Shown one piece after another: positions 1 to 46,600 of a stretch of DNA of 64,000 nucleotides; the stretch's first letter is position 1, and the number at the start of each line of letters is the position of its first letter. The stretch spans positions 110 to 64,109 of the forward strand of contig CAJVXN010000005.1 of the NCBI GenBank assembly GCA_913009335.1, written 5' to 3'. The notes below the pieces were generated by a model. It saw only the letters and a program-made list of their open reading frames with translations. It did no database searches and was not told the origin of the DNA. Position numbers and translations under genes: made by a program. The DNA is from an uncultured bacterium. GTDB taxonomy: Bacteria > Omnitrophota > Gorgyraeia > Ghiorseimicrobiales > Ghiorseimicrobiaceae.

Positions 1-120
1 TAATTCTGCTTCTGCTTGGTCTAATCGTTTATTAATCCATTTATCCGTATCTTTTGGGTCAAGAGCCATAAGCCATTCTATTTCCCTAAAATTCCTTAAC
101 ACTTCATTAAATGTTTTCAT
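1..120 (-). CDS. hypothetical protein, N-terminal part only (continues beyond window start)
   Basis: ATG at 120 (TAATG overlap with helicase stop); reverse-strand translation MKTFNEVLRNFREIEWLMALDPKDTDKWINKRLDQAEAEL... runs off the window. Confidence 0.35.
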   Translation of the reverse strand, partial: MKTFNEVLRNFREIEWLMALDPKDTDKWINKRLDQAEAEL

Positions 121-22424: not shown

Positions 22425-23657
22425 ATGAATAAACAAAATTTAATTCAAAATGCGATTATTTTTCAACAACCGATTTATCATTTTGCAGCGCAGCTTTTAG
22501 AAAAAAGTAAACTAAAGGCTGTGCTTGATATCGGCTGTAGTTATCCAAAAAAGTTAGAAAAATTTATTCTTCCTTTAACTTCGGATATTACAGGGATAGA
22601 TTTACCGGAAACAATTAAACTGGTAACAAGTGAAGTAAATTTTGGATCATGGATTTCTTGTGATATAGAAAAAGATAAAATAGAATTAAATAAGAAATTT
22701 GATTTAATCATTTGTTCCGATATAGTGGAACATCTTGATAATCCTGAAAAATTATTTTCTTTGATTGAAAAATGCAGTAATGACGATACTTACATTTTAA
22801 TTTCTACCCCTGACGCTACATCTACATTGAAACAATCTAATGGTAGGCCCGCGAATATTCTGCATAAAAGAGAATGGGATAGGGTTAATTTTGAGAATTA
22901 TTTAAAAAAAAGCGGATTTGATATATTGCAGAGTAAATATTATATAGAACAAAATTGCCATCCGACTTATATCTGTAATTATTTTTTATGTAAAAAATCA
23001 AATATAAGAAAAAAACATATTTTAATTACAGTGCCTAATGTACACTGGATACACCAACATGTTACGCACAGGCTTTTAATGCTTCAAAAAGATATCCGCT
23101 ATAATTTAACATTTAAACTTCCTTCACATAAACCTTATGTGAATAATTTACATCATATAGTCAATGATTTTATCTCGGGAAATTATGATTTCTGGTTGAA
23201 TATCGATGCTGATAATCCGCCTCAAGAAAATCCTCTTGATTTAATTGAATTAGATAAAGACATTATAGGGCTACCTACTCCCATTTGGCATTTTACGAAT
23301 AAAGGAAACAATGAGAGGCCTGTATACTGGAATGCTTATGATTATCTTTCAGAAAAAGACGCTTATGCTGAACATGAACCAAAAAAGGGATTACAGAAAG
23401 TTGACGCGGTAGGGACAGGTTGTATTTTAATCGCGCGCAGAGTATTTGAAAATCCTATTATGCGGCAAGGCGCATTTATGCGTAAATGGAATAAAGACGG
23501 CACAGTAGATAAAGGAAATGATATGGCTTTTGCCGAAATAGCAAGGAATCAGGGATTTAATATTTATGCTCATTATGATTATCCTTGCGACCATATGTCG
23601 GAATTATCTTTAAATGAAACAGTAAGGGCTTTTACTAATTTATTTGAGGCAAAATAA
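22425..23657 (+). CDS. bifunctional methyltransferase / GT-A-like glycosyltransferase (putative)
   Basis: N-terminal class I MT motifs VLDIGCSYP ... FDLIICSDIVEHLDNPEKLF; C-terminal DADNP and DAVGTGCILIARRVF resemble the DxD and acceptor regions of GT-A transferases. Confidence 0.55.
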   Translation: MNKQNLIQNAIIFQQPIYHFAAQLLEKSKLKAVLDIGCSYPKKLEKFILPLTSDITGIDLPETIKLVTSEVNFGSWISCDIEKDKIELNKKFDLIICSDIVEHLDNPEKLFSLIEKCSNDDTYILISTPDATSTLKQSNGRPANILHKREWDRVNFENYLKKSGFDILQSKYYIEQNCHPTYICNYFLCKKSNIRKKHILITVPNVHWIHQHVTHRLLMLQKDIRYNLTFKLPSHKPYVNNLHHIVNDFISGNYDFWLNIDADNPPQENPLDLIELDKDIIGLPTPIWHFTNKGNNERPVYWNAYDYLSEKDAYAEHEPKKGLQKVDAVGTGCILIARRVFENPIMRQGAFMRKWNKDGTVDKGNDMAFAEIARNQGFNIYAHYDYPCDHMSELSLNETVRAFTNLFEAK

Positions 23658-26395
23658 TGAATACTCCGTGGTGCGGCGCCCAAGAAGACAAACTTTATCT
23701 TCAATCCGGGCAGTTCAGTTCTACTTTAAAGACTAGTTTAAGTATTGTGAATTTAGATTATACTCCTTACGGAATTTCCTGGGATGGCACTGACACTCCT
23801 TGGTGTGGTCATACAGTTGGTACTCTTTGGCTTCAATCCGGGCAATTCAGCTCTACTTTAAAGACTAGCTTATATGTAGGAGGGGTCGACACGGATCTTT
23901 ATGGAATTTCCTGGGACGGTACAAATACTCCTTGGTGCGGCTATCAAGGAGGCAAACTCTATCTTCAATCAGGTCAATTCAGTTCTACTTTAAAGACTTC
24001 ATTATATATAGGAGGGGTTGATAACGACCCTGAAGGTATTTCTTACGATGGTACTAATACTCCTTGGGGTGGTTGGACTAATAGTAAACTCTATCTTCAA
24101 TCCGGGCAGTTCAGTTCTACTTTAAAGACTAGCTTATCAATAGTTACAAACCCAAGTGGTATAACTTACGATGGTACTAATACTCCATGGAGTAGTTATA
24201 CAACAGATAAACTCTACCTTCAATCCGGGCAATTCAGTTCTACTTTAAAAACTAGTTTATATGTTGGAGCAGTTGATACGGCACCTGGTGGGATAAGTAC
24301 AGATGATATAAATGCAAGATTAAGCGGGGCTTCAAGCTCTTCCAGCTCTTCAAAATCTTCTTCGAGTTCTTCTTCTAGTATAGGCAGCTCAAGCAGTTCG
24401 AGTCTTTCATTAAGCTCAAGCTCATCAAGTAGTTCTACTTTGCCGGCAGCAGCTTCGACCAATACTCCGTGGTGTAGTGGTTTTGCTGGTAAAATGTTTC
24501 TTCAATCCGGGCAGTTCAGTTCTACTTTAAAGACTTCAGTATATACAGGAGGAATTGATACAGGTATAGGAGGTATTTCATGGGATGGAACCAATACTCC
24601 TTGGTGCGGTTTTACGGATGATAAACTCTACCTTCAATCCGGGCAATTCAGCTCTACTTTAAAGACTAGCTTATATGTAGGAGGGGTCGACACGGATCTT
24701 TATGGAATTTCCTGGGACGGTACAAATACTCCTTGGTGCGGCTCCCAAGAAGACAAACTCTACCTTCAATCAGGTCAATTCAGTTCTACTTTAAAGACTT
24801 CACTGAGTATAGTTACGATTATTAGGGGAATATCTTCTGATGGTTTTAATACTCCTTGGTGCGGCTATCAAGGAAGCAAACTCTATCTTCAATCTGGGCA
24901 GTTCAGCTCTACTTTAAAGACTTCATTATATATAGGAGGAATTGATTTAGGCGTTTGGGGTATATCTTGGGACGGTACTGATACTCCTTGGTGTGGAAAA
25001 GAGGCAGATAAACTCTACCTTCAATCAGGGCAATTTAGTTCTGTATTAAAAACATCGCTTGATATTAGTGGAGTTGCTATTAACCCTCAAGGTATCACCA
25101 CAGACGATATAAACGCGAGATTAAGCGGGGCTTCCAGTAGTTCAAGCAGCTCAAATAGCTCTAGCAGTTCAAGCAGTTCAAATAGCTCTAGCAGTTCTAG
25201 TTCTTTAAGTAGCTCAAGTTCAAGCAGTTCATTAAGCTCTAGTTCTTCGAGTAATTCAAGCAGTTCCAGCAGTTCCAGTTTATCTAGTTCAAGCAGTTCA
25301 AATAGCTCTAGCAGCTCAAGCAGTTCAAATAGCTCTAGCAGTTCTAGCAGTTCAAATAGCTCAAGTTCAAGCAGTTCATTAAGCTCTAGTTCTTCCAGTA
25401 ATTCTAGTAGTTCCAGCAGTTCCAGTTTGTCTAGCTCAAGCAGTTCAAATAACTCTAGCAGTTCAAGTAGTTCAAATAGCTCTAGCAGTTCAAGTAGTTC
25501 AAGCTCTTCCAGTAATTCAAGCAGTTCCAGCAGTTCTTTGAGTTCTAGTTCTTCTAGCAATTCTAGCAGTTCGAGTAGTTCCAGTTTATCTAGCTCAAGC
25601 AGTTCAAATAGTTCTAGCAGCTCCAGCAGTTCATTAAGTTCTAGTTCTTCCAGCAATTCTAGTTCTTCAAGCAGTTCTAGTTTATCTAGCTCAAGCAGTT
25701 CAAATAGTTCAAGCAGTTCAAGCAGTTCATTAAGCTCTAGTTCTTCCAGTAATTCTAGTAGTTCCAGCAGTTCCAGTTTATCTAGTTCCAGCAGCTCAAA
25801 TAGCTCTAGCAGTTCAAGCAGTTCAAATAGCTCTAGCAGTTCAAGCAGTTCATTAAGCTCTAGTTCTTCGAGTAATTCAAGCAGTTCTAGCAGTTCCAGC
25901 AGTTCATTGAGTTCCAGCTCTTCCAGTAATTCAAGCAGTTCTAGCAGTTCCAGTTTGTCTAGTTCCAGCAGTTCAAATAGCTCTAGCAGTTCAAGCAGTT
26001 CATTAAGCTCTAGTTCTTCGAGTAATTCAAGCAGTTCCAGCAGTTCCAGTTTATCTAGTTCAAGCAGTTCAAATAGCTCAAGCAGTTCCAGCAGTTCAAA
26101 TAGCTCTAGCAGTTCTAGCAGTTCAAATAGCTCTAGCAGTTCAAGCAGTTCATTAAGTTCTAGTTCTTCGAGCAGTTCATTAAGTTCTAGTTCCTCAAGC
26201 AGTTCTAGCTGGCCAAGTTCATCTAGCAGTTCATCTAGTTCGAGAAGTTCTAGTTCTTCATTAAGTTCTAGCAGTTCATCAAAGTCAAGCAGTTCGTCGG
26301 CCTCTCTATTTGAGAAATTAGTTTATTTCAGTGATGAAACATATAATTATGAAATGAGTGAAGATACAAGCAATTATGAATTCGCGGCACAGTAA
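23657..26395 (+). CDS. repeat protein: about 12 x 40-aa NTPWCG/KLYLQSGQFSSTLKTSL/GISWDGT repeats, two poly-Ser segments (second about 390 aa), short acidic C-terminus
   Basis: direct reading of the ORF translation; repeats visible at both DNA and protein level. Confidence 0.7.
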   Translation: MNTPWCGAQEDKLYLQSGQFSSTLKTSLSIVNLDYTPYGISWDGTDTPWCGHTVGTLWLQSGQFSSTLKTSLYVGGVDTDLYGISWDGTNTPWCGYQGGKLYLQSGQFSSTLKTSLYIGGVDNDPEGISYDGTNTPWGGWTNSKLYLQSGQFSSTLKTSLSIVTNPSGITYDGTNTPWSSYTTDKLYLQSGQFSSTLKTSLYVGAVDTAPGGISTDDINARLSGASSSSSSSKSSSSSSSSIGSSSSSSLSLSSSSSSSSTLPAAASTNTPWCSGFAGKMFLQSGQFSSTLKTSVYTGGIDTGIGGISWDGTNTPWCGFTDDKLYLQSGQFSSTLKTSLYVGGVDTDLYGISWDGTNTPWCGSQEDKLYLQSGQFSSTLKTSLSIVTIIRGISSDGFNTPWCGYQGSKLYLQSGQFSSTLKTSLYIGGIDLGVWGISWDGTDTPWCGKEADKLYLQSGQFSSVLKTSLDISGVAINPQGITTDDINARLSGASSSSSSSNSSSSSSSSNSSSSSSSLSSSSSSSSLSSSSSSNSSSSSSSSLSSSSSSNSSSSSSSSNSSSSSSSSNSSSSSSSLSSSSSSNSSSSSSSSLSSSSSSNNSSSSSSSNSSSSSSSSSSSSNSSSSSSSLSSSSSSNSSSSSSSSLSSSSSSNSSSSSSSSLSSSSSSNSSSSSSSSLSSSSSSNSSSSSSSSLSSSSSSNSSSSSSSSLSSSSSSNSSSSSSSSNSSSSSSSSLSSSSSSNSSSSSSSSSSLSSSSSSNSSSSSSSSLSSSSSSNSSSSSSSSLSSSSSSNSSSSSSSSLSSSSSSNSSSSSSSSNSSSSSSSSNSSSSSSSSLSSSSSSSSLSSSSSSSSSWPSSSSSSSSSRSSSSSLSSSSSSKSSSSSASLFEKLVYFSDETYNYEMSEDTSNYEFAAQ
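25130..26300 (+). repeat. 48-nt (16-codon) tandem repeat encoding [L S6 N S8]n
   Basis: periodic agcagttcaagcagttcaaatagctctagcagttc... units; antisense reads LELLEL artefact ORFs. Confidence 0.8.
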
Positions 26396-27928: not shown

Positions 27929-29518
27929 GTGGTAGAAATAATTATAAAAAAAGAAGAAAGAATTGATTGGCAAAAGGAAATTGCCAAAAGATCTATATCT
28001 GACGCGAAGCAATGGCAGATAAAAGAATATCGCCGCTGCGCCGAAGATAAAGAATATTGGTTTAATAATTATGTATGGGTAATTAATACTAATATAAAAA
28101 CAGGCGATGCGATAATCCCTTTTAAACTTTGGCTCCACCAAATAAAATTGTTAAAGCAACTCGATAAATATATGGATTTGTTTATCGATAAAGCAAGAAA
28201 GCTAGGCATATCTTGGTGTGTTATGGGATGGGAACTTCATCAGGTACTTTATACTAAGGTATTTACTGCGTTAAATATCTCCCGTAAAGAATCAGAAGTC
28301 CAAGATCCGGGAAATACTTTTCATTCTTTGCATGGCCGCCTTCATTTCATGTATAAGAGATTGCCGCCTTTTTTACAACCTAGAATACACAATCCGTTTC
28401 TTACATTTTCTGTTCCATCTATGAATTCAATAATAAGAGGCGAATCAGCTAATCGTAACGCGGGCCGTGATACACAGTATAAATTTGTACTTATAGATGA
28501 AGCGGCGCACGTAGAGTGTTTAGACGAGATGTTCAAAGGTGTAAGAAATGCTACAAACGCGATGTGCCTTAATTCCACTCCGCCTAAAGAGAGCGTGAAT
28601 AATAAATTCGCTGAAATAAAAGATATGAAGAATTCAGGATTTATTAAAATGAGATTCAAATGGAATGAAAATCCTGAACATACACAGGAATGGTTTAATA
28701 AAAAAACCGCATCGATGACAGAAGAAGAAATCGCGCAAGAATTATTGATAGGATATGATAAAGCGATGACGAATAGGTCATATCCAGAGTACGCTGATGC
28801 TCAACATCTTTTAGGGCATAAAGTTTATCTTAATCCTAAATCAAAATTGTATGCTTTTATGGATTTCGGCCTTGACGGCGAAGGATGGATTTTCGCGCAA
28901 AAAGATTTTCAGGATAGGTTATTCTGTATTTATTACGAAATATTTAAAAATAAATTAACTCCGGAGCTTTATGCTGAATTTATAAAAAGCCTTGATGCGA
29001 TAGGTTATACTGGGTTGATAAGCGACATTGTTTTTATTGGTGATAAATCCGGCAACAAAAGAAGCCGGTTGACTAAGACAAGTGTGATAGATGATTGGAA
29101 GAAAGTATCAAATGGCGAGATTGTAATCCACACAAGGGAATTATCCAATGATGAAAAAATGCGGTGTGTAAAAATGTGTTTTAAGAAATACATTAATGGC
29201 CGGCCGCAATTTAATATATCAAATTCTCCGACATGTCTTGAATTGGCCAAATGCATAAAGAACGTTACATTGAATAAGACCGGAGCGGATCATATAGATA
29301 ATAAGCATACGCATGCTGTAAATATGTTAGAATATGGAATAAATTATATATTCCCAAAAACCAAAGCGGCAGGGATCCTTGTAGAATTGAATCCAGGAGA
29401 TGAAGTAAAAGATAATGATGGAAAAACAATCGGTAAAGTATCTAATACTGTACGCGCGGCTTCTGCTTCTGCCGCGATAGGATCTCATAGAATAGAAAGG
29501 ATTAGTTTATATGCTTAA
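27929..29518 (+). CDS. terminase large subunit
   Basis: size 529 aa, ATPase Walker B FVLIDEAAHVE, C-terminal nuclease-like acidic residues, synteny. Confidence 0.75.
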   Translation: MVEIIIKKEERIDWQKEIAKRSISDAKQWQIKEYRRCAEDKEYWFNNYVWVINTNIKTGDAIIPFKLWLHQIKLLKQLDKYMDLFIDKARKLGISWCVMGWELHQVLYTKVFTALNISRKESEVQDPGNTFHSLHGRLHFMYKRLPPFLQPRIHNPFLTFSVPSMNSIIRGESANRNAGRDTQYKFVLIDEAAHVECLDEMFKGVRNATNAMCLNSTPPKESVNNKFAEIKDMKNSGFIKMRFKWNENPEHTQEWFNKKTASMTEEEIAQELLIGYDKAMTNRSYPEYADAQHLLGHKVYLNPKSKLYAFMDFGLDGEGWIFAQKDFQDRLFCIYYEIFKNKLTPELYAEFIKSLDAIGYTGLISDIVFIGDKSGNKRSRLTKTSVIDDWKKVSNGEIVIHTRELSNDEKMRCVKMCFKKYINGRPQFNISNSPTCLELAKCIKNVTLNKTGADHIDNKHTHAVNMLEYGINYIFPKTKAAGILVELNPGDEVKDNDGKTIGKVSNTVRAASASAAIGSHRIERISLYA

Positions 29519-30899
29519 AAAAAGTAAGAAATTAAAAGAGTCCAGTTCTATTGAATTGGCAGGAGATAAAGTTATTTCTTTTAAAGAAAGAGAAAAAAGA
29601 TCAATAGAATTAAAGAATCGCATAGCCGAATCATATCCTATGGTAGGCGGCGCGTCTGATGATAATTTATGGCGATCACTGAATCAATTAACAAATCGTG
29701 ATTTATATACTCTCACGCAAAAAAGGATGCAGGATATAGCATTTTTTCTTTATGATTCAAATCCTATGGCTAAAAGGATTTTAGAGATTATGCGTGATTT
29801 TGTAGTAGGCGATGGTTTTAAATATTCAGTTGTAGATCCCGGGGTTAAAGAAGTTATTGATAATTTCTGGAATGATCCAGATAATAATTTAGATGAAGAA
29901 TTAGATACAAATGTTTTAGAATTGGGAATATTTGGAGAACTATGTCTTCCTACGTGGGTTAATGGGGCAGACGGATCCGTGAAATTAGGATATATTGATC
30001 CTGTTACTATATTAAGAGTATTCAAGGATAAATCAAATCCTAAGATACATCGTAAATTAAGATGGAAAAAACCGAAAAGTCCTAAAGAAATAGATTTAGA
30101 TATTATAAATATAGACAAAAGAATAACATCGAAAACGGAAGGTAAATTAATAGGAGAATGTTTTTTCTTTGCTATTAATAAGGTAAGCGGCGCTACTCGC
30201 GGAAGAAGCGATTTATTAAGTTTGGCTGATTGGTTAGATGGGCATGATCAATTTCTTTTTGCCCGATTAGAAAGAGCATTTTTAATAAACACATTCATCT
30301 GGGATATTACCTGTGAAGATATGAATGAAAAAGAATTAAAAGAATTTGTTAAAGGTTTAACACTACCAAAATCAGGATCAATAAGAGCGCATAATCAAAA
30401 GATAAAATGGGAAGCTATAGTTCCTAAATTAGAATCTGACGATGCCTCAAATGAAGCAAGACTATTTAAAAATCAGATATTAGGCGGAGCTGGCTATCCG
30501 GAACATTGGTTTTCAGAGGGAGGTAAGACTACGAGGGCTACGGCCCTAGAGATGGGGCTTCCTACTCTTAAAAAATTAAAATCACGCCAAAGGAAATTCA
30601 TTGGTTTTTTAAAAAGGATACTTAATTATGTTATAGACCAGGCAATAATTGCCGGAACATTAAAAGAAGGTGTAAATCGTGAATTTAAAATTATCCCTAC
30701 ACCTATTGTTTCGAGGGATAATAAAGGCGTATCAGAAGCGATGTCTGGATTAGTTTCCGGTTTAGTTCTAGCAAAAGAACAAGGATGGATTACTGACAAA
30801 AAAGCAAAAGTGGTTCTCAATGCCGTACTTTCTCAATTAGGCGTTGAAATGGAAGCTGATGAAGAAGAAAAGAAGGAGGAGAAACAAAATGAAGAATAG
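29511..30899 (+). CDS. portal protein (putative)
   Basis: 462 aa directly after terminase, acidic C-terminus EEEKKEEKQNEE; synteny-based. Confidence 0.55.
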   Translation: MLKKSKKLKESSSIELAGDKVISFKEREKRSIELKNRIAESYPMVGGASDDNLWRSLNQLTNRDLYTLTQKRMQDIAFFLYDSNPMAKRILEIMRDFVVGDGFKYSVVDPGVKEVIDNFWNDPDNNLDEELDTNVLELGIFGELCLPTWVNGADGSVKLGYIDPVTILRVFKDKSNPKIHRKLRWKKPKSPKEIDLDIINIDKRITSKTEGKLIGECFFFAINKVSGATRGRSDLLSLADWLDGHDQFLFARLERAFLINTFIWDITCEDMNEKELKEFVKGLTLPKSGSIRAHNQKIKWEAIVPKLESDDASNEARLFKNQILGGAGYPEHWFSEGGKTTRATALEMGLPTLKKLKSRQRKFIGFLKRILNYVIDQAIIAGTLKEGVNREFKIIPTPIVSRDNKGVSEAMSGLVSGLVLAKEQGWITDKKAKVVLNAVLSQLGVEMEADEEEKKEEKQNEE

Positions 30900-32094: not shown

Positions 32095-32103
32095 AAAAAT
32101 ACT

Positions 32104-32160
32104 TGACAAACTATCTTTTTTCAGGCTATACTTTAAATAGTTATCCACAGGTTATCCACA
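32104..32160 (+). promoter_or_regulatory. promoter (TTGACA-17-TATACT) followed immediately by two consensus DnaA boxes
   Basis: acttgacaaactatcttttttcaggctatactttaaatagTTATCCACAggTTATCCACAgg; the same 22-bp box pair occurs at 10717-10738. Confidence 0.4.
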
Positions 32161-32246
32161 GGAATATTATACCATTTGAACCGGCAACATCCGGAAAATA
32201 GCAATAAGTTGATTAAGTAAGTAAGAATTGCCGGAGAAATGATATA

Positions 32247-34850
32247 ATGAAGTTTCTGCAAAACACTATCGCATCATTTTTAGAAAGCACATCTTCCGGA
32301 AATAGATGGAAGGTGATGATAATTGAAGAAGGCCTTTCTAAAAACGGTAAATTCTACACGAAAGAAGCCCTCCAGAAATCAATTCCTCTTTTTGAAAAAT
32401 CAAAAGTTTGTTTCTATGAATGGAAAGGTAAACAATTCGATCATATTCCATTATCAATAGAAAAAATGCGCCCGGAAGGATTCCCGCTGCAGACAGCAGG
32501 ATGGCTCGATAATGTTAAATTCGAAACCATTAAAGTTGAAGGCCGGGAAGTTACCGGCCTTACAGGAAGCCTGCATTTATTGGAGAATGACAAGGTTAAA
32601 CAATTAAAAGATACTCTTGTCAACGCATGGCAGAAGGGATTGAAGAATTTTCTGGGTTTATCAATAAACGCGGAAGGCCCATCGAGTGTGCGGATGTTAA
32701 ACGGCCAACCGATATCTGTAGTATCAGGTATAACGAAAGTATTTAGTACGGATTTTGTAACTCAACCCGCAGCCGGCGGGGGGTTACTTAAATTAATTGA
32801 AAGCTTAAACAACACAGGAGGGGAAGAAAAAATGTTTAAGAAGTTATTGGAAGCATTAAAGTTGTACAATCCAAAAATAATGGAAAGCATTGATGTTAAT
32901 AACATCACAGCAGAAGAAGTATTGAGCCTCTTTGAATCAGTTCTTAAAGAAGCCAAAGAAAAGAATTCTGATAAGGTAAAAGAAATCGAAGCCATAGTTG
33001 GCAAGATGAAAGATAAGAAATACGAAGAGGCAGAAACATTAATTAACTCCTTAGTTAAAACAAAAGAAGGCAAAAAAGAACTTTCAGATTCTGATTTGCT
33101 TGCGGCAAAAGAAGCTGAATTGAATCCTAAACAGCTTAAGAAAAAGAAAGAGCTTGAAAAAGCAAAAGCCGACGCTAAAGAAGCTGAAGAAACAGCTGCC
33201 AAAACAAAGAAAGAAGCCGAGGATCTTAAAAATAAAGATTTAGAAGGCAAAATGGCCGCTTTAGATAAGAAAATCAAGCAGAGAGAATGCAAGGATATGC
33301 TTGATTTAGCTCTTGATGAAAGTAAATTGCCTATGGCAATTCAAAATAAAATACGTAAGACATTCGCGAGTAAAGTCTTTGAATCAAAAGACTTAAAAGA
33401 ATCGATTGATCTTGAAAGATCAACATTGGCTAAATTAATTGAAAGTGGAAGCCATATTGATTTAGGCGGAGACGGCGGAGGCGGTGTATTTATCCAAAGA
33501 GAACCTGTTACGAGATTACAGGCGTCTCTTGATTTGACTCTTGGTTTCAAGCCGGAAGATATCGATGGGGATAATTATAAAGACATAGATGCCTTCGGTT
33601 CTTTAAGGGAAGCGTATGTCGCGTATACTGATGATCCGGGAATCAGCGGACAATTAGGGACCAAGGCAGTCGCAAGATTGCAGGAAGCCACAGAAGCAAA
33701 CTTTTCTTACGCATTAGGTTATTCGATGCAGAGAAGAATGCTTCCTGATTACAAGAAGCTTGATCCTCTATGGAAAAAAATAGCTATATCAGTTCCGATT
33801 AAGGATTTCAAATTACAGGAAAGAATCAGATGGGGCGGTTTTGGAGTATTGCCGACAGTCCAGAATGCAAGGACAGTTGCCGGAACGCCTATTGATTCTG
33901 CTACTCCTACTTATCCTGAACTTGGATTCCCGACTGACCAGGAAGCCACCTATGCGGTTGGCACCAAGGGCGGTATCGTTACCGTAACTCGTAGGATGAT
34001 AATTGATGATGATTTGAAGGTTCTTACGAAAATTCCCGGGAAGATAGGTAAAGCCGCGGCTATGACATTGAATCAGTTCGCGTTTGATTTGATGTTAAGT
34101 TATAATTCCTCTGGAATTAATGCGGCTACGATTTATGATAGTATAGCTCTTTATGCGACAGCGCATAAAAATAAAAGAACAGGCTCATTAGGATATGATA
34201 ACCTTTCTACTCTACTTGACGATATGTACAATCAGGCAGAGCTTGGATATAAAAGTGATAGCACTAATGATCCGTTAGCATCCGGAGGGACTACTCTTAA
34301 TGTTACAGCCGGAACTGGCCAGTATTTTAAAGCCGGTGATTTAATATGGCTGGCTGGTGAAATATGTAGAGTAGACAGCGTTTCAACCGACGCTTTAACA
34401 ATAGCAAGAGGAGTATTTGGAACTACCGCAGCACAGCACGCAATAGGCACTGATGTATGGAAGATTAGTCAGATTTTAGCGTTACAGAATCCTAATCTTT
34501 GGGTGCCTCGCAGCTTGCGCGGAACAGCTTTACAGCTGAAAAATTCTGAATTTAATCCTGAACAGTTGGAAAGAGCAGTCAACACAATAAGAGATTCATT
34601 TGAAGTAACGGATGCTACTCCGTATTTAAGAGGCGATGAAAATAACTATTATCTGTCAGCGCAGCCAGGCGACGTTGAAGGTATCGAAATAGGATTCCTA
34701 AACGGAAAAGAAGATCCAGAGTTATTAGTTCAGGATCAACCTACAGTCGGCAATGTGTTTGTGTATGATACGATTAGATATAAGGTGCGTCATGAGTACG
34801 GCGGTGCGGTTGTTGATTATCGCGCCTTTGCAGCTTCAATAGTAGCTTAA
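32247..34850 (+). CDS. major capsid protein with N-terminal protease-like and coiled-coil scaffold-like extension (putative fusion)
   Basis: 867 aa; central KE-rich coiled-coil (KKKELEKAKADAKEAEETAAKTKKEAEDLK); position between portal and tail genes; C-terminal about 450 aa of capsid size. Confidence 0.5.
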   Translation: MKFLQNTIASFLESTSSGNRWKVMIIEEGLSKNGKFYTKEALQKSIPLFEKSKVCFYEWKGKQFDHIPLSIEKMRPEGFPLQTAGWLDNVKFETIKVEGREVTGLTGSLHLLENDKVKQLKDTLVNAWQKGLKNFLGLSINAEGPSSVRMLNGQPISVVSGITKVFSTDFVTQPAAGGGLLKLIESLNNTGGEEKMFKKLLEALKLYNPKIMESIDVNNITAEEVLSLFESVLKEAKEKNSDKVKEIEAIVGKMKDKKYEEAETLINSLVKTKEGKKELSDSDLLAAKEAELNPKQLKKKKELEKAKADAKEAEETAAKTKKEAEDLKNKDLEGKMAALDKKIKQRECKDMLDLALDESKLPMAIQNKIRKTFASKVFESKDLKESIDLERSTLAKLIESGSHIDLGGDGGGGVFIQREPVTRLQASLDLTLGFKPEDIDGDNYKDIDAFGSLREAYVAYTDDPGISGQLGTKAVARLQEATEANFSYALGYSMQRRMLPDYKKLDPLWKKIAISVPIKDFKLQERIRWGGFGVLPTVQNARTVAGTPIDSATPTYPELGFPTDQEATYAVGTKGGIVTVTRRMIIDDDLKVLTKIPGKIGKAAAMTLNQFAFDLMLSYNSSGINAATIYDSIALYATAHKNKRTGSLGYDNLSTLLDDMYNQAELGYKSDSTNDPLASGGTTLNVTAGTGQYFKAGDLIWLAGEICRVDSVSTDALTIARGVFGTTAAQHAIGTDVWKISQILALQNPNLWVPRSLRGTALQLKNSEFNPEQLERAVNTIRDSFEVTDATPYLRGDENNYYLSAQPGDVEGIEIGFLNGKEDPELLVQDQPTVGNVFVYDTIRYKVRHEYGGAVVDYRAFAASIVA

Positions 34851-35348: not shown

Positions 35349-35888
35349 ATGGCTAAAAGAATAAGATTTAAATACTTTCTCGCTCAACAGCGAGGAGGAA
35401 CTTCGTTAGATAAGTCCGCTGATTATACGCTTACCGAAAATGATATCCTGCAATTAGGATATTCTTTTATTAAATTAGATACTAATGCTAAATTAACTTT
35501 GCCAGCTGTTACATCTGCGTTAAAAGGCATTAGTATTTATGTGCATTGTACGGATAGAGGATATGTGGAATGTACTCCCGGATTTGGCGGCGGCGGCGGA
35601 AGTTATGATACTGTAAATTTATATCAGTACGATACTGTTGAATTTTGGTGCGACGGAACTTATTGGTACGCGTTATCAGAGAATGTAACTGCGGCTGGAT
35701 CTTCTTCTTCTTCAAGTTCAAGCAGTTCAAATAATTCATCAAGTTCATCAAGCCGTAGTTCAAGTTCATCAAGCCGTAGTTCTTCTAGTTCAAGCAGATC
35801 AAGCTCTTCTAGTTCAAGCAGTTCGAACTCCAGCTCTTCTAGCAGTTCAAGCAGCTTAAGCAGTTCATCTAGCTCAAGCACTAAGTAA
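35349..35888 (+). CDS. head decoration-like protein, paralog 2, with about 50-aa poly-Ser C-terminal tail ending STK
   Basis: MAKRIRFKYFLAQQRG...GFGGGGGSYDTV...WCDGTYWYALSE then SSSSSSSSSNNSSSSSSRSSSSSS...STK. Confidence 0.5.
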   Translation: MAKRIRFKYFLAQQRGGTSLDKSADYTLTENDILQLGYSFIKLDTNAKLTLPAVTSALKGISIYVHCTDRGYVECTPGFGGGGGSYDTVNLYQYDTVEFWCDGTYWYALSENVTAAGSSSSSSSSSSNNSSSSSSRSSSSSSRSSSSSSRSSSSSSSSSNSSSSSSSSSLSSSSSSSTK

Positions 35889-35898
35889 GGAGTAAAGA

Positions 35899-36213
35899 AT
35901 GGCAAATCCTACATATAGATGTCCATGGAAACAAAACGCGGGAATTGGAATAACTTGCGAGAATGTAGATTGTGGCGGATATAATTTTAGAAAAGAAGAT
36001 TGCAATTTAATTATGGCCGCCCGCAAGAGCGTAAGAATGTCCGGAGCTCCTGCAAGAGATAGTATAGTAGATGGTGTAACTGATTATTCTAGTTCATCAA
36101 GTTCATATTCATCCAGTTCAAGTTCGTCTAGTTCCATATCATCTTCGTCAAGCTCAAGTTCTAAATCAACATCTTCTTCTAGCTCGAGTTCATCCAGCTC
36201 AAGCACGAAGTAG
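35899..36213 (+). CDS. small virion-module protein with poly-Ser C-terminal tail ending STK
   Basis: 104 aa; Cys-rich N-terminus; SSSSSSYSSSSSSSSSISSSSSSSSKSTSSSSSSSSSSSTK. Confidence 0.45.
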   Translation: MANPTYRCPWKQNAGIGITCENVDCGGYNFRKEDCNLIMAARKSVRMSGAPARDSIVDGVTDYSSSSSSYSSSSSSSSSISSSSSSSSKSTSSSSSSSSSSSTK

Positions 36214-37518: not shown

Positions 37519-38517
37519 ATGTCAAAAATAACACGTGTAGCTCAATTAGCAGGTAAGATAGAAAGCGTAAGTGGAACAGCTGAATCTTTAACCGCAAGCG
37601 AAGCAACGTTACTGGCCTATGAACCAGTGATGAATTTGGCTCCGGAGCAATTCAAGAGAGATCCGGTAGTCAAGCACATGTCAAGGTTTCAATCTGAACC
37701 CGGTGCAAGAAAAATGGATTTGACTTTCAAGGCAGAACTCATGGGTCCTCTATCAGGAGCAAAAGGTGTAACGCTTCCAATTACTCCATATTTAAGGGCT
37801 TGCGGCTTCTCTGAAAGTCTTTCAGGCGGCGTAAGCAATATATATGTTCCTGTTTCAAGCAGTTTCGTTACCGCGACAATAGCGAAATACCAGGATGGTG
37901 TAAGAAAATTGATGTTAGGCTGCGCTGGCAATGTAAAATTCCAGTTTAAAGTAGGGGAACCTGTGTTCTGTGATTTTACTATGCAGGGTAAATATTCATC
38001 TCATGGCGATGTATCAATGTTATCACCGAGTTATCCGGCCCAAGTACCTCTTATGTTTATGGGTGCGACAATCAGCATATTAGGTGATACATTAGTATTA
38101 GACAATCTTGAGATAGACATGCAGAATGAAATTGTTTTATCTCCATTACCGTCTGATGTAAGCGGTATTGATTATGCTAAAATAACCGGACGTAATCCGA
38201 TAATGACATTTGATCCGGAAATGACTGCTGTTTCGAGCCACGATTTTTATTCAAAATTACTTTCACGAGCAACAGCGGCAGTAACGATTACTATCGGAGA
38301 TATAAATAGCAATAAAATAATGTTTTCTCTGCCGGCTGTAAGATATACAGGATTAGGAGAAGGAGATAGAGGGGGAATAGCAATACAAAACGCGACTTGC
38401 GAAGTTTGTAAGAATTCAGATGCCGGAAACGATGAAATCAGTATAACAATGACTTCTTCGTCTAGCTCGAGTTCTTCAATGTCTAGCTCGAGTTCTTCAT
38501 CGTCTAGTTCTACGTAA
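37519..38517 (+). CDS. major tail (tube) protein with poly-Ser C-terminal tail
   Basis: 332 aa immediately upstream of chaperone pair and tape measure; ends TSSSSSSSSMSSSSSSSSSST. Confidence 0.55.
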   Translation: MSKITRVAQLAGKIESVSGTAESLTASEATLLAYEPVMNLAPEQFKRDPVVKHMSRFQSEPGARKMDLTFKAELMGPLSGAKGVTLPITPYLRACGFSESLSGGVSNIYVPVSSSFVTATIAKYQDGVRKLMLGCAGNVKFQFKVGEPVFCDFTMQGKYSSHGDVSMLSPSYPAQVPLMFMGATISILGDTLVLDNLEIDMQNEIVLSPLPSDVSGIDYAKITGRNPIMTFDPEMTAVSSHDFYSKLLSRATAAVTITIGDINSNKIMFSLPAVRYTGLGEGDRGGIAIQNATCEVCKNSDAGNDEISITMTSSSSSSSSMSSSSSSSSSST

Positions 38518-39750: not shown

Positions 39751-41712
39751 ATGGCTGTAAATAAAATAAAAATTGTTTCTGGATATGAAGATAAATCAAG
39801 CGAGAAAATAAAGGCATCGTTTGATAAGTCTAAGAAATCCGCTGTTGATTTATCAAAAGAATTTAAAAGCTTAAAAAGAAGCATTAGCACTTCTATGCTT
39901 AAAGTACGGAAGAGCATAGAAGTAAATCTACAAAAATCTTCCGTTGCGCAGAAAAAACATGCTAAAGAACTTGCTCATCATACCCGTTTCATGGGCATGT
40001 CAATAGGTAAACTAGCCGGACAAATTGGATCTATGCGTAATTTTATATTAGTATGGATGTTTGCCTTACGTCCTTTGATTAATATTATTAAAAGTACAAC
40101 GGAAGCAATGACAAAGCAAGAAGATGCTTTGAAAAGGCTTAATTACGCTATGGGTATACAGGGAACACAATCTAAAGTTGTCAATAATCGATTGATAGAA
40201 ATGTCTAAAGGATTCCAAGCAGTAACTAGATACGGCGATGAGGCTGTTTTAGAAGTAATGGAAAAATTAATAACTCTTGGAAGAGTTATGCCTAATCAAT
40301 TAGAGAGAGCCACACAGGCTGTCTTGGATTTTTCTTCCGCGAGCGGAAGAGATTTATCTATGGCTACGCTGCTTATTGCTAAAGCAGCAACGGGCTTCAC
40401 CGGGGAATTGTCTCGTTATGGAATTAAAATAGACGAAAACATACCTAAAACTAAAAAATTCTCCGCCGTACTTGAATTTATTGAAAAACAAATGGGAGGC
40501 AGGGCGCAGCAGGATATAGATAGTTATGGTGGAAAAATAAAGCTTCTAGGAAATCAATATAGTGATTTAAAAGAAAAAATAGGTTTAACAATATGGAAAT
40601 ACGGAGGATTAAACGCGGCTGTAGAAAAATTATTAAAGACATTTAGGTCATGGAATGAACATTTTGAGAAAGAAGACCCCTTAGATAATGCTATTTTTAA
40701 AGCAAAAAAACAAATTAAAGTATTGGAAGAATTAGACAAAAAAATGACTGGAAAAAGACCTATGAAATTACTTTATCTTTTTCCGATAGGAGAAATTGAT
40801 ATAGGAATTAAAAAATCAAGGACAAGGATAGAATCACTGTATAAATTTATCGACGCGGCAGAGAAAAAAAAGATAGAAAGAAAAATAGGCTCTGATGTGA
40901 TCGCTATGGCTGAGAAAGAAAAACAAATAAAAATGCAGGCCGAAGAAGATTTTCAAAAAGCGTATGATAATTTAGCTTCCAGAAAAATAGAAACAGCTAT
41001 AAAAACTTTAGAAGAGGAATACGCTTTTAATAAAAAATATGTAGATGATAAAATAGCTCTCGAGTATTTGTATTCTGAAAAGAAAAAAGCAATAGACGCG
41101 ATGGTCCTTGCTAATGAAAAAAAGAATAGAACATTAGCCGGCAGGCAAATGGTTAAATTCATGGAAACATACGCTAAGGGAATGGAGAGAGCATTAAGTG
41201 AGGGATTTTTTAAAGTTGTAAAAGGAGAATTTGAAGGATTAAAAGATGTTGTAATTAGTTTCGGCGATTTAATGTTAAAAACATTAATACAGATAGCGGT
41301 GAAGATGGCAATGATAAAAGCATGGGCCGGCTTCGGCCCTCTTTTAGGAATAAATCTTTCTACAGCTGCGACAGCTGCGACAAAAACAGTAAATGTTTTA
41401 CCCGCAACCGGACATTCAGGAGGAGTTGTTCGTAAATACCATTCCGGCGGAGAAGTAAATGCCACTCTTTTAGAAGGCGAAGGCGTTCTTAATAGAAACG
41501 CGATGTCTAATTTAGGAGTTGATAATCTTAATAAATTAAATAGCGGAGAAGATGCTGGCGGTAAAACAGTAAATAATTATTATATCCAAACAATTGATGA
41601 AAGATCATTCCGGGAAAGACTACAGCAAAATGGTGATATTTACGCTAATGCTTCCGAGCAAGGCATAAGGGACAATACTTCTTTAAGAAGGACAAGTCAA
41701 AGATTTGGATAA
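39751..41712 (+). CDS. tail tape measure protein
   Basis: 653 aa, largely alpha-helical/coiled-coil, internal hydrophobic segment, position after chaperone pair. Confidence 0.7.
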   Translation: MAVNKIKIVSGYEDKSSEKIKASFDKSKKSAVDLSKEFKSLKRSISTSMLKVRKSIEVNLQKSSVAQKKHAKELAHHTRFMGMSIGKLAGQIGSMRNFILVWMFALRPLINIIKSTTEAMTKQEDALKRLNYAMGIQGTQSKVVNNRLIEMSKGFQAVTRYGDEAVLEVMEKLITLGRVMPNQLERATQAVLDFSSASGRDLSMATLLIAKAATGFTGELSRYGIKIDENIPKTKKFSAVLEFIEKQMGGRAQQDIDSYGGKIKLLGNQYSDLKEKIGLTIWKYGGLNAAVEKLLKTFRSWNEHFEKEDPLDNAIFKAKKQIKVLEELDKKMTGKRPMKLLYLFPIGEIDIGIKKSRTRIESLYKFIDAAEKKKIERKIGSDVIAMAEKEKQIKMQAEEDFQKAYDNLASRKIETAIKTLEEEYAFNKKYVDDKIALEYLYSEKKKAIDAMVLANEKKNRTLAGRQMVKFMETYAKGMERALSEGFFKVVKGEFEGLKDVVISFGDLMLKTLIQIAVKMAMIKAWAGFGPLLGINLSTAATAATKTVNVLPATGHSGGVVRKYHSGGEVNATLLEGEGVLNRNAMSNLGVDNLNKLNSGEDAGGKTVNNYYIQTIDERSFRERLQQNGDIYANASEQGIRDNTSLRRTSQRFG

Positions 41713-41730: not shown

Positions 41731-42423
41731 ATGTCATATAATCATATACTCACTCTCACTCCGGAATTCGGCATCGAAGAATCAATAGAATTCCGTACTA
41801 ATGTTACTGATTCAGAAAGCGGGAAAGAACACCGTGATGCATTGTGGGATGAAGGAATACGGGAATATAAATTAACTGTAAGATTCCTTACTAAAACCGC
41901 GATGGATTTAATATGGAATTTTTTTATCGCCAGGCATGGAAGTTTTGATTATTTTCTTACAAAGATAGAACAGGAATACGAACAGATTAATGAAGCGGTA
42001 GATACCGGCGACGGAGTAGTAACTGAATTTTTATTAGATAAATTTCCCGTAGATACAGCATCAAATCACTCGTGTAGTGTAGCCGATGTTACGAATACAG
42101 ATTATCTTTTACGTAATGATTTTAATCTTGAGAAATCTTATATTACTTTTAATAATGCTTACTCCGGAGCGATAGTAGTTTCTTATGAATATTATTTTAA
42201 AGTCCGCTTTAAAGAAGATAAATTAACCAGGCAATTAGCTGCTTATAAATTACTGCATGCTGGGATAACTTTGAAAGAGGTACGTTGGACATCTTATGGT
42301 TCAACATTAGGTAATTCTTCTTCTTCTTCAATGAGTTCTAGTTCTAGTTCCAGTTCATCTAGCTCATTAAGCTCAAGTTCTTCCAGTAGTTCTTTAAGCA
42401 GTTCAAGCAGTTCATCAGCTTAA
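41731..42423 (+). CDS. minor tail protein (lambda gpM position) with poly-Ser C-terminal tail
   Basis: synteny TMP-M-L-K-J; ends NSSSSSMSSSSSSSSSSSLSSSSSSSSLSSSSSSSA. Confidence 0.45.
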   Translation: MSYNHILTLTPEFGIEESIEFRTNVTDSESGKEHRDALWDEGIREYKLTVRFLTKTAMDLIWNFFIARHGSFDYFLTKIEQEYEQINEAVDTGDGVVTEFLLDKFPVDTASNHSCSVADVTNTDYLLRNDFNLEKSYITFNNAYSGAIVVSYEYYFKVRFKEDKLTRQLAAYKLLHAGITLKEVRWTSYGSTLGNSSSSSMSSSSSSSSSSSLSSSSSSSSLSSSSSSSA

Positions 42424-43285: not shown

Positions 43286-43683
43286 TAACAAATTATGATC
43301 TTAATGACTTGATTGGAGTTCCTTTCAAGCTTAATCGCAGAGATTTTAAAGGATGTGATTGCCGGGGCATAGTATGGCTTTATTATAAGCATGTTATGAA
43401 TAAAGAAATACCTTTCACTGATGGAAAAAGAATATTTTTCCGCAATAAGAATAAAGATTTTGAACGTATAACCAATGTACTTAAAACATTTACCAGAGAT
43501 GTAAGTTTCAAAGAATTAGAAGAAGGAGACATCGTAGTGCTTAAAGGATTAAGTTCTTTCGGGGCCTTAGGAGTTTGTATTAATAAAGAATATATTTTAC
43601 ACATGGATAAGTTTGTAGGATCGTGCTTAACTAAAACACGATATATGGAAAATTTAATATTATCAGTTTATAGGCCGATATGA
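43282..43683 (+). CDS. NlpC/P60-family tail protein (lambda gpK-like)
   Basis: catalytic Cys region FKGCDCRGIVWLYY and His region YILHMDKF. Confidence 0.65.
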   Translation: MITNYDLNDLIGVPFKLNRRDFKGCDCRGIVWLYYKHVMNKEIPFTDGKRIFFRNKNKDFERITNVLKTFTRDVSFKELEEGDIVVLKGLSSFGALGVCINKEYILHMDKFVGSCLTKTRYMENLILSVYRPI

Positions 43684-46600
43684 AAAAAATAAGCATACTC
43701 TTTTTCTTTTTATCATTAATTATAACAAAAAATGCCTATGCTGTGCCTGTGGCAGTATCAGTAGCTTTTTGGTACGCGGCCCAAGCAGTTGCAGCCTTTG
43801 TTGTTGCTAATTGGGTAGTAATCGCGATAACAGTCGCGTCTATAGCGTATAGTCTTTCTCAATCTACAAATCAAGATAGGCTGAAAGCTCCCGCCTCAAA
43901 ATATACTTCTCCGGTGATATCCAATTCTTATTCTAATGAAGGTATTGTTCCATTGTTATATGGAGGCCCTATTGCTTTAGGCGGAAATATTATATGGCAG
44001 TCTGATCCGGGATCAACAGTGCAGCGATTTTTAGCCATCTCCGCGGGAGAAATATCAGCGATCACTAATGTCTTAATTGATGATCAGGATATATCGTCGC
44101 TTTCCGGTTGCAGCTATACAGCGTATTTAGGAACGGCAACGCAATCAGTAGACTCCAGGGGGGCGGGAACAGTTAAAGGATTACGCGATGTTGCTTATTT
44201 GGCCCTTGAGATTACATCAGGAGATAAGGTAAGCAGCAATCCTATTGTTTCATGCCGGGCAACCGGGAGAAAAATACAGACCTGGAATTCATCTACATGT
44301 AACTGGACTACTAACTCCCTATCCAGTTCTAAAAATCCTGCCGCGATATTGCGTGATTATTTATTATTGAGTTACGTTGTCGGTGGTTGTGGTATTCCGG
44401 CGGCGTATGTAGATGATGTAAGTTTTGGCGCGGTATCTGAAATCTGCGACGCTCAAATAGATAATGGATCAGGCGGAACAGAAGCAAGATATGAATTGGA
44501 TATTGTTATCGATACGAAACATTCCGCTTTAGATAATATTGATAAGATGCTTATTACTTGCAATGCCGCATTGATACGCAGCGGAGCAACGTATAAATTA
44601 ACCATAGAAAAAGCCAATGAAACAGCTGTTATGGCTTTTACAGAAGATAATATTTTAAAAGGATCATTTGAATACGGATACGGAAAAGCTGATGAAACTC
44701 CGAATAAAGTAGGAGTTGAGTGGATATCCGCGTTAGAAACTAAAAATCCTAAACGTGTAGAATGGGCGGAAGATGAATTAGATCAGGAAATACGCGGTAT
44801 AAGAGAAGAAAAAATAGAAACATATGGAATTATCCGGCAAAGCCAAGCTTCCAGGATCGCTAAGAAAGCATTGTATGAAAGAAAGATAAACGATATTTGG
44901 TGTAGATTTAAAAGCAATATTAAGGCCCTGCATTGTGAACAGATGGATGTCGTTACTATAACACATTCACGGCCGAATTGGACTGCCGCGCAATTCAGGA
45001 TAGTTGAAATAAATGAAGCTGATTTTGGCAACGCTCAATATTTAGCGCAGGCATATAACAGTTCTGTCCTTGATGATAAATATGGAGCAACATTTGATGA
45101 TTGGGATTATGGATCTCCTCCTAATCCGTATACTCCGGTAACAGACGTTACAGGAGTAGTATTAGAAGAAGTCGGCTGGCGTAATACAGATGGTGTACAT
45201 ATTGCTCATATCGATGTTACATGGACGGCTCCCGCGACGAAAAAAGAATTTCTTTCCAGCTATGTTATAGAGCTTAAAAAAGAGAATGACGCTTATATAT
45301 CTGTGGGGACTCCTTCATCCGGAGATACTGAATATCGTATAAATCTTAATCTTGAAATAAATAAAAATTATTATGTTCGTATAAAAACTGTATCAACAGA
45401 AGACATTGTTTCTGATGGAACAGTTTCTTCAAAAATTACGTTAGTCGGTAAAGACGCGAATCCTTCGGATGTTTCTTCATTCTTAGTTAGAAAATACAGA
45501 GATACAGTAATATGCAGATGGACAAAAGTTACCGATGTCGATGTTGAAAAATATGAAATAAGGAAAGGAGATGATTGGGATTCCGCCGGCATTGTCGGTA
45601 CTAATCTTACCGGAATAGAAACAACATTAAGAGATGTAAAAATAGCAGCAAATCAATCCTATTGGATAAAAGCGATTGATAATTCAGGCAATTATTCTGA
45701 AAATGCCGTTGAAGCGATATTAACAATATCAAATATTCCTTTTCAAAATATAATACAAACTTATTTAGAGCATACCAACTGGCTTGATAACTCAAACATA
45801 TACTATGTTTCAAATGAGGATAGCGACTATGATTTAAGAACTGTAACGCAGGATTATGAAAAATTAGCACAGTCGTTTACTCCCAGCGTGGACAGGACTG
45901 TGGATAAAATATCTTTAAAATTAGTTGAAAACGGCCATATTTATTCTTCTTCTTCAAGTTCATCTTCCAGCAGTTCAAGCGTTTCCTCAAGTTCTTCTAG
46001 TTTAAGTTCCAGTTCAAGCAGCCTTTCTTCAAGCAGTTCTTCATCAAGCATAGCAAGTTCAAGCAGCTCAAGCTCAAGTTCGTCAAGTTCAAGCTCCTCA
46101 AGCAGCTTAAGTTCATCAAGTTCGTCTTTGTCTTCTTCAAGCAGTTCGAATAATTCATCCAGCTCCTCAAGCAGCTTAAGTTCATCAAGTTCGTCTTTGT
46201 CTTCTTCAAGCAGTTCGAATAATTCATCCAGTTCATCGAGCAGTTTAAGCTCTTCAAGCAGTTCGAGTAAGATGCCTCCGATAAGCAGCAGTTCGAGTTC
46301 TTCTTATTCTTCTTCATCTTCTTCAAGATCTTCATCCTCGAGTTCTCGAAGCTCTAGCTCTTCTTCAAGATCTTCTTCTTCAAGTTCTGTTTCTTCCAGT
46401 TCTTCTTCATCGAGTTCTTCCAGCAGCCTAAGTTCTTCTTCATCGAGTTCTTCCAGTTCTTCTCTATCTTCTTCATCTTCTAGTTTAAGTACAAGTTCAT
46501 CAAGCAGTTCTTCATTGAGTAACTCAAGCAGCTCAAGTTCTAGTTCTTTAGCCGGAACAACAGCGATATGGGTTACGATAGAAGGAGATAATGCCGGCGA

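Follow-up and report, generated by a model that had tools for sequence, protein, structure and literature searches.

A double DnaA box in the leader of a phage capsid operon as a possible operator for host DnaA

The window analysed here (the whole stretch of DNA, 64,000 nucleotides) carries a tailed-phage genome in which the capsid operon is preceded by a near-consensus sigma-70 promoter. Two perfect DnaA boxes in direct orientation lie immediately downstream of this promoter and, as judged in silico, fall within the polymerase footprint or the early transcribed region. From the sequence, we tentatively propose that the two boxes form an operator through which host DnaA modulates transcription of the capsid operon; the most likely effect would be a block of the promoter, lifted once DnaA has been titrated or inactivated. 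The features of the locus are as follows.

32103-32108, plus strand: -35 hexamer TTGACA, preceded by a C
32127-32132, plus strand: -10 hexamer TATACT
32139-32162, plus strand: AGTTATCCACAGGTTATCCACAGG, a 24-bp segment identical to 10715-10738 (repeat family D15)
32141-32149, plus strand: DnaA box 1, TTATCCACA, perfect, at ~+2 to +10 of the predicted transcript
32152-32160, plus strand: DnaA box 2, TTATCCACA, perfect, in the same orientation, 2 bp past box 1
32163-32246, plus strand: 5' leader of the capsid gene, delimited by alignment with relatives, with the ribosome-binding site GGAG at 32233-32236
32247-34850, plus strand: prohead-protease/major-capsid fusion, the first gene behind the promoter

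The promoter matched the sigma-70 consensus at 11 of 12 positions. The original prediction had given it as TTGACA-17-TATACT; both hexamers were found as described, with a spacer of 18 nt instead of 17. Only one further copy of the pattern cTTGACA-N16-19-TATAnT was present in the window, upstream of the SNF2 helicase gene (0.03 expected). The transcription start site is a prediction only and was placed ~7 nt past the -10 hexamer. The first box begins 9 nt past the last base of this hexamer, and the pair covers roughly +2 to +22; the earlier placement at +9 to +28 had been counted from the -10 hexamer. The identification of the downstream gene as a capsid gene was confirmed by a Pfam Phage_capsid_4 match in the C-terminal half of the protein and by head-maturation-protease PHROGs in the N-terminal half.

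As predicted, the two boxes directly past the promoter are perfect 9-mers separated by 2 bp. Each is followed by GG, which gives a period of 11 bp, and the pair with both GG dinucleotides reads TTATCCACAggTTATCCACAgg (32141-32162). The direct-orientation spacing of 2 bp lies within the range of 2-3 bp that defines a double DnaA box (PMC11317965). Both the promoter and the boxes match the Escherichia coli consensus, and the proposed regulation is therefore directly testable in E. coli.

Perfect copies of TTATCCACA were strongly overrepresented in the window (11 vs. 0.51 expected). Eight of them are located at 10386-10774 and two at the capsid promoter, and the eleventh, isolated at 45899, is compatible with chance. 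Tandem box pairs were found four times (0.00 expected). The 22-bp pair was known to be repeated at 10717-10738, and the identity in fact extends to 24 bp between copies with unrelated flanks. This repeat had been interpreted as a duplication from the origin, which is too specific. As far as can be judged from the sequences, the pair is ancestral at the capsid promoter and no recent copy from the origin-like region, since relatives have box pairs at the same promoter. The 24-bp identity can be explained by two consensus boxes together with the GG spacer usual for this family.

Relatives were collected by a capsid-based scan of IMG/VR, which yielded 36 loci with 48-73% amino-acid identity, corresponding to 22 distinct upstream regions; part of the promoter calls in them was made by eye. 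Nearly all of the 22 regions contained cTTGACA followed by a TATAnT-type -10 hexamer at 17-19 nt. A perfect TTATCCACA between the -10 hexamer and the ribosome-binding site was present in 10 of the 22 lineages (the window, L005, L014, L015/16, L018, L019, L020, L021, L032/36, and L035), whose capsids are 63-73% identical to that of the window; three lineages had only relaxed boxes. The perfect box usually has a partner 2 bp (occasionally 3 bp) away, which is TTATTAACA, ATATCCACA, ATATTAACA, or TTATTCACA (7/9 or 8/9 matches). In perfect-box loci of up to ~14.5 kb, the promoter box is the sole perfect box. The boxes are always co-oriented with transcription, and their surroundings have diverged freely. 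The distance from the -10 hexamer to the first box ranges from 9 to 25 nt, and in most relatives, the last box adjoins the ribosome-binding site (CCACAGGAG), 8-11 nt upstream of the start codon. The promoters come equally close to the consensus whether or not boxes follow them. The recurrence of pairs at the same position in diverged relatives argues that the box element is under selection. In the lineages L018 and L020, a terminator-like hairpin (ACGGATTTA...TAAATCCGT, then a T run) was noticed between the box pair and a small open reading frame (ORF); it could give rise to a short RNA or serve attenuation.

The other boxes of the window are concentrated in a region of origin-like architecture, which borders the gene of a secreted hydrolase.

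9608-10123, minus strand: secreted hydrolase with a Pfam CHAP domain and a signal-peptide-like N-terminus
10386-10450, minus strand: left array of four perfect boxes, three at an 11-bp period plus one, followed on the same strand by AGGAG and an ATG at 10369
10520-10619, no strand assigned: AT-rich stretch between the arrays, with 80% A+T at 10540-10619; candidate unwinding element and/or promoter region
10717-10774, plus strand: right array, with four perfect boxes at 10717, 10728, 10750, and 10766 and the variant TTACTAACA at 10739
10931-11446, minus strand: conserved 171-aa protein, functionally unassigned, always adjoining the origin-like region

These elements occupy a gene-free region of ~800 bp in the order minus-strand boxes, GC-rich segment, 80% A+T stretch, and plus-strand array. 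A box cluster combined with an AT-rich element in non-coding DNA, which marks a DnaA-dependent origin, is present at 10386-10774 (eight perfect boxes and one variant); the promoter pair at 32141-32160 itself falls short of a cluster of at least four boxes with an unwinding element of its own, having two boxes and no AT-rich element separate from the promoter. The minimum of the cumulative GC skew at 10-12 kb coincides with the switch in gene orientation. The term "origin" used for this region by the original prediction is justified for its architecture and goes too far as a designation: judging from sequence, 10386-10774 may serve as an origin, or the leftward genes may have their DnaA-controlled promoter region there, or both.

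Syntenic regions of relatives were retrieved with alignment-based queries, using the adjacent 171-aa protein as an anchor; single-protein anchors (the CHAP protein, a 934-aa glycosyltransferase-like protein, and the 171-aa protein) were unsuccessful or matched unrelated phages. The architecture recurs in L268/L311, L291-L298, L301, L304, L306, L307, L310, and L314-L316, and in L289, the sequence of the region is the same as in the window. The layout starts with a terminator-like hairpin of the 171-aa gene (identified by eye) and a box pair or array in TGTGGATAA orientation, continues with a spacer, an AT-rich stretch, and a GC-rich hairpin, and ends with an array in TTATCCACA orientation, which runs into the ribosome-binding site and start codon of the gene of the secreted cell-wall hydrolase. 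The CHAP-type hydrolase is the first gene past this array in relatives and the first sizeable one in the window. The array in the hydrolase leader (L310: gTTATTAACAgctTTATACACAgaTTATTAACAggTTATCCACAggagatttATG) is the same kind of cassette as the capsid leader of L032 or L005. The box content of the origin-like regions varies; boxes are nearly absent in two genomes, and lineage-specific variants occur (TTGTCCACA, TTATGCACA, TTATACACA, TTTTCCACA, TTCTCCACA, and TTATCGACA).

Some further observations were made on these regions. A -10-like "agcaTAGAATaactta" just upstream of the hydrolase-side array is conserved in several relatives (L306, L307, L310, and L295 were examined). A tandem TGTTAATAAgtTGTTAATAA, composed of two TTATTAACA variants 2 bp apart, is located just upstream of the hydrolase gene in L267 (238-260, corresponding to L304 ~1878-1900) and L302 (~2700-2722), and the relatives with this tandem have few consensus boxes in the origin-like region. 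Many metagenome contigs of relatives stop in or just before the AT-rich part (L291-L297, L303, L309, and others), which suggests a systematic assembly break there.

The sites themselves resemble targets of DnaA. Among 73 box-like 9-mers from the promoter and origin-like regions, T2, T4, C8, and A9 were almost invariant and changes clustered at positions 1, 3, 5, and 6, a degeneracy that partly fits TT(A/T)TNCACA. The origin-like region and the capsid promoter draw on the same repertoire of sites. In vivo, E. coli DnaA requires the 2-bp direct spacing at almost all of its targets, including purH, where a 7/9 box lies upstream of a 9/9 box (PMC11317965). The relatives repeat this purH-like layout, with TTATTAACA, ATATCCACA, or TTATTCACA beside TTATCCACA. 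The variant TTATTAACA is likewise frequent in the paired DnaA boxes of T5-like phages (10.1101/866236), and a variant of this type was seen in the terminal repeat of phage Seafire. A search with phmmer, a weak test that used approximate domain IV queries of E. coli and Bacillus subtilis DnaA against all 558 ORFs of at least 40 aa, revealed no phage DnaA (best E = 0.4), and the scanned ORFs of the window yielded no DNA polymerase. Reliance on host initiation proteins fits these results.

The idea of DnaA-dependent modulation of the capsid genes was part of the original prediction, and what stands of it is that perfect, 2-bp-spaced boxes lie in the initial transcribed region of a conserved promoter and recur in relatives. 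Binding by DnaA, a negative effect on transcription, and release by titration are inferences. In the proposed mechanism, the double box would be an operator for host DnaA, located within the ~22 bp that are transcribed first from a strong promoter of the host type, and two ATP-bound DnaA molecules would bind it cooperatively. Bound DnaA would hinder open-complex formation or promoter escape in the window phage; in relatives with boxes further downstream, it would act as a roadblock just ahead of the ribosome-binding site. As long as free DnaA-ATP is plentiful, transcription of the capsid operon from this promoter would be low. Release could come by titration, when multiplying phage genomes, each with eleven perfect boxes (eight of them at the origin-like region), draw DnaA off; alternatively, ongoing replication could inactivate DnaA-ATP. 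The second copy of the cassette, ahead of the secreted hydrolase gene, would be under a like control. Stopping the polymerase just ahead of the ribosome-binding site would, in addition, keep partial transcripts that can be translated from being made. A negative sign is favoured because the pair in the window overlaps DNA that RNA polymerase must occupy. The variable distance from the -10 hexamer to the boxes argues for a steric block or roadblock over a face-specific activator, and since box-bearing and box-less promoters are equally near-consensus, no activator appears to be needed. A more elaborate version, in which DnaA serves as a genome-copy counter and the leader boxes keep both capsid and hydrolase genes off until the eight-box arrays of the phage titrate DnaA or replication inactivates it, is possible, if rather doubtful.

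Several observations weigh against a DnaA block of the capsid promoter. Nine of the 22 related promoter regions (~40%; L001, L002/28, L003, L022, L024, L026, L027, L029, and L030) have no boxes, and the element is therefore dispensable for the phage family. Tandem arrays in other viral contigs (n = 197) showed no promoter enrichment over the control side, and a general rule that tandem boxes sit behind promoters was rejected. Read-through from upstream rightward promoters may reach the capsid genes. The sign of the effect could differ, as activation by DnaA from downstream sites is reported for lambda (cited in PMC3985674). On the host side, no related prophage was detected in GTDB genomes, where a scan with the capsid alignment gave two remote matches. 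An identical protein is on record from a contig binned as a Candidatus Omnitrophica metagenome-assembled genome and from a marine metagenome; this bin is only a lead to the host. Finally, the boxes at the origin-like region and at the capsid promoter do not strictly go together. Both regions could be paired in four genomes only.

The window: boxes present in both regions
Ga0180732_1000185: boxes present in both regions
Ga0334722_10000429: non-consensus repeats and three 18-bp iterons at the origin-like region; no boxes at the capsid promoter
Ga0268280_1000151: a single relaxed box at the origin-like region; boxes at the capsid promoter

Strict co-variation was rejected, as three of the four genomes agree with it and one does not; the link between origin and promoter boxes is a trend. 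The mismatch in Ga0268280_1000151 weakens a strict titration coupling between origin and promoter. Because ~40% of the related promoters have no boxes and the origin-like region of one relative is nearly box-free, any coupling of capsid expression to DnaA or replication is optional, not obligatory.

The same boxes would serve equally well if DnaA stimulated the promoter, e.g., by promoting escape through a contact with RNA polymerase, so that capsid expression would be high with abundant DnaA-ATP. Near-consensus promoters are often limited at escape, which would leave room for such an effect. According to PMC3985674, lambda has DnaA-protected sites downstream of pO, and DnaA-stimulated transcription from pR is cited there. 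We regard stimulation as unlikely, since the boxes in the window overlap the region occupied by polymerase (~+2 to +22), a range of 9-25 nt between the -10 hexamer and the boxes is unusual for an activator with a fixed contact, and the promoters of box-less relatives are equally strong. A late antitermination unit of the lambda Q type was also considered and ranked low: no terminator-like site was seen between 32133 and 32246, and among the relatives, L018 and L020 alone have a terminator-like hairpin past the boxes. No search was aimed at a Q-like gene.

There is a small chance that DnaA binding at the boxes has a non-transcriptional role, such as auxiliary loading or secondary initiation beside an AT-rich promoter opened by transcription, a bridge of DnaA oligomers to the origin-like region, or a tether to membrane-bound DnaA as proposed for T5. 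The arrangement of AT-rich DNA followed by TTATCCACA pairs pointing away also characterizes the origin-like region in its right half. Boxes phased at 11 bp were found as tandems and as triples in more than 120 unrelated viral contigs each, with no link to promoters, and the eight boxes of the T5 injection-stop region have been proposed to act outside replication (10.1101/866236). However, the capsid locus has two boxes only and no separate unwinding element, and the fixed place of the boxes between promoter and ribosome-binding site in relatives, together with their constant orientation, points to gene expression.

About as improbable is binding by a phage-encoded or another host protein, the resemblance to DnaA boxes being due to mimicry or convergence. 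The best argument for it comes from Ga0334722_10000429 (L268 1590-1960, corresponding to L311 2140-2510), in which three iterons GTCGGGTTTCTTTACAGT are located on one side of the origin-like region and two copies of TGTCGATAA and one of TGTTGATAA on the other; these repeats, together with the box-free capsid promoter, form the pattern expected from a co-evolving phage protein. Recurrence is not limited to the 9-mer but extends to the GG that follows the box and to the variant TTATTAACAGG, and the 171-aa protein beside the origin-like region would be an unassigned candidate. However, the universal DnaA 9-mer is matched perfectly in ten clustered sites of the window, and the lineage variants TTGTCCACA, TTATGCACA, TTATACACA, and TTTTCCACA remain within the known space of DnaA boxes. 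The 171-aa protein shows no obvious co-variation with the sites, being 51-67% identical among genomes whose repeats differ, and no DNA-binding domain was detected in it.

The capsid leader itself allows two weaker explanations. In most relatives, the promoter is followed by an ORF of ~105 codons (MPYPNEHAARI...) and then by the capsid gene. This small ORF is deleted in the window, where the leader at 32163-32246 is its decayed 3' remnant of ~85 nt; the ORF had no Pfam match, and tblastn revealed no copy of it elsewhere in the window. A candidate leader stem (CCGGCAA at 32183 with TTGCCGG at 32229) was rejected, as RNAalifold on 10 relatives gave 0 pairs and the single-sequence z-score was -1.4. 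A scan of the whole window at Rfam gathering thresholds detected no RNA family.

Action of the element in the mRNA leader, either through CACAGGA/CACAGGU motifs as targets of a CsrA-like repressor or through a regulatory structure, would agree with the position of the last box next to the ribosome-binding site at a variable distance from the promoter. Typical CsrA targets are GGA motifs ~11 nt apart with one at the Shine-Dalgarno sequence, and the CACAGGA/CACAGGU repeats, one of which lies over the ribosome-binding site in relatives, resemble them. This explanation is nevertheless very improbable: the same 9-mers are found inverted and separated by GC or AA in the origin-like arrays, to which an RNA-based reading does not apply, the TTATCC half is conserved as strongly as the GG, and the leader has neither a conserved or unusually stable structure nor an Rfam match. 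Just as hard to credit is a functionless pair in the window phage, left by recombination between the origin-like region and the promoter and tied to the small-ORF deletion; the 24-bp identity with unrelated flanks, the absence of the small ORF in the window alone, and the many relatives that manage without boxes would suit it, but pairs at the same position in ten diverged lineages, in which the box is the sole invariant block of the leader, are incompatible with a window-specific accident.

Control of the capsid promoter by host DnaA would have parallels in several known systems. DnaA as a transcription factor, boxes as transcription blocks, DnaA sites at lambda promoters, and box pairs in T5 are already known. 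The closest parallel is provided by the double DnaA boxes at the promoters of E. coli dnaA, nrdAB, purH, and other genes (Stringer, Fitzgerald and Wade 2024, PMC11317965), which are direct 9-mers 2-3 bp apart, often one perfect and one with 7/9 matches, located at or just past a sigma-70 promoter. There, the initiator doubles as a transcription factor linking expression to replication status, and the same idea is proposed here. In contrast to the E. coli cases, the promoter described here belongs to a phage and serves virion structural genes, and its control by DnaA is a prediction.

Lambda also has host DnaA sites downstream of phage promoters, pR and pO (Szalewska-Palasz et al. 1998, as cited in PMC3985674), and thus a cross-talk between phage transcription and the host initiator. 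The sites of lambda match the box only weakly and are found close to its origin and replication genes, and the reported effect on pR is a stimulation that serves replication; the sites in the window, unlike these, are perfect, tandem, and located ahead of the capsid operon, ~21 kb from the origin-like region.

T5-like phages carry eight paired DnaA boxes in the injection-stop region (bioRxiv 10.1101/866236). Like T5 and Seafire, the phages studied here have conserved pairs of a consensus and a variant box (TTATCCACAgg with a TTATTAACA-type box) outside the replication origin of a lytic phage. In T5, by contrast, the boxes of a pair are separated by 3 bp, and the pairs are located in a long terminal repeat that is not translated and have been proposed to act in injection arrest, not in control of a structural-gene promoter. 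Late transcription is tied to replication through the sliding clamp gp45 in T4 (PMC2988020) and through the C protein and the host beta clamp in Mu (PMC12867686). The coupling of virion-gene transcription to the state of DNA replication would be common to T4, Mu, and the present phages; in T4 and Mu, a replisome clamp is the activator, whereas the sensor proposed here is the availability of the host initiator at an operator. The arrays at 10386-10774, with their 11-bp phasing on both sides of an AT-rich stretch in a long non-coding region, resemble bacterial oriC and the oriR of plasmid P1. Unlike in oriC and oriR, the origin role is predicted only, and some relatives have other repeats in place of the boxes.

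DnaA boxes inside transcription units have been described before in bacterial genes. Schaefer and Messer (1988, 1989; cited in PMC10950094 and PMC13438810) reportedly found that the complex of DnaA with a dnaA box blocks transcription and acts as a terminator at asnC, with dependence on box orientation. The likeness lies in the position of the box inside a transcription unit; the box orientation is constant across the phage relatives. Those cases involve single boxes in bacterial genes, and the phage boxes are tandem.

A different arrangement was noticed in the unrelated IMG/VR contigs L042, L101, L139, and L199, where TTGACA-18-TATACT is located ~26 nt upstream of triple TTATCCACAGG arrays, which are followed by TTGTCCATAGG repeats. 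This layout may represent a second, independent promoter-plus-array design.

To our knowledge, the way in which virion genes are delayed in phages using unmodified host RNA polymerase is understood for a few model phages only. In targeted full-text searches of the available literature, neither a conserved double DnaA box heading a structural-gene operon of a phage nor such a cassette at a lysis-type gene was found to have been described. If the proposed control is real, the double box in the capsid leader would be a simple, regulator-free link of late expression to replication or to the growth state of the host, and the copy-counter version would amount to a late-gene switch without a phage-encoded regulator. 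The same cassette at a lysis-type gene and the origin-like array of identical sites add to this picture of coupling. The use of host DnaA by phages may be broader than the few studied cases.

The remaining genes of the window agree with its assignment to a tailed phage. The window is regarded as circularly contiguous and nearly the whole genome (~64 kb), because in relatives, the genes homologous to those of the right window end come directly after the SNF2 gene. No close cultured relatives were found in the phage collection, in which a search with short queries matched only promoter- and box-like stretches in terminal repeats of T5-like phages, and the exact capsid protein had no database record. 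The following genes were assigned.

120-1733, minus strand: SNF2 helicase
2877-3329, minus strand: RNase H
12090-12440: J-domain (DnaJ-like) protein, adjoining the origin-like region
12639-12944: GroES/Cpn10 homologue, adjoining the origin-like region and also retained by relatives
27929-29518: large terminase
29511-30899: portal
39751-41712: tape measure
43680-47528: J-like tail protein
57435-60005, minus strand: AEP primase

Some minor features were also recorded. A 913-aa protein (23657-26395) consists of 48% Ser and contains a SSSSSSNSSSSSSSSL-type tract of ~430 residues. Poly-Ser tails end four proteins of the structural region (35349-35888, 35899-36213, 37519-38517, and 41731-42423), and the J-like tail protein has a poly-Ser insert of ~250 residues (about 45940-46510). 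In addition, the phage has genes for a glycosyltransferase-like protein, a DegT aminotransferase, and several methyltransferases, one of which is a rhamnosyl O-methyltransferase. Because of these tracts and genes, the virion proteins may be heavily O-glycosylated. A 90-nt tRNA-Asp predicted by ARAGORN at 12031-12120 overlaps the start of the J-domain ORF and is doubtful, the Rfam scan of the window being blank. A DNA N6/N4 methyltransferase (54231-55703, minus strand) has an HNH-endonuclease-like segment in the middle of the protein (residues ~152-286). The leftward block of replication genes contains an inverted repeat, I1 (56364-56445/56539-56620), with arms of 82 nt that are 84% complementary and 93 nt apart.

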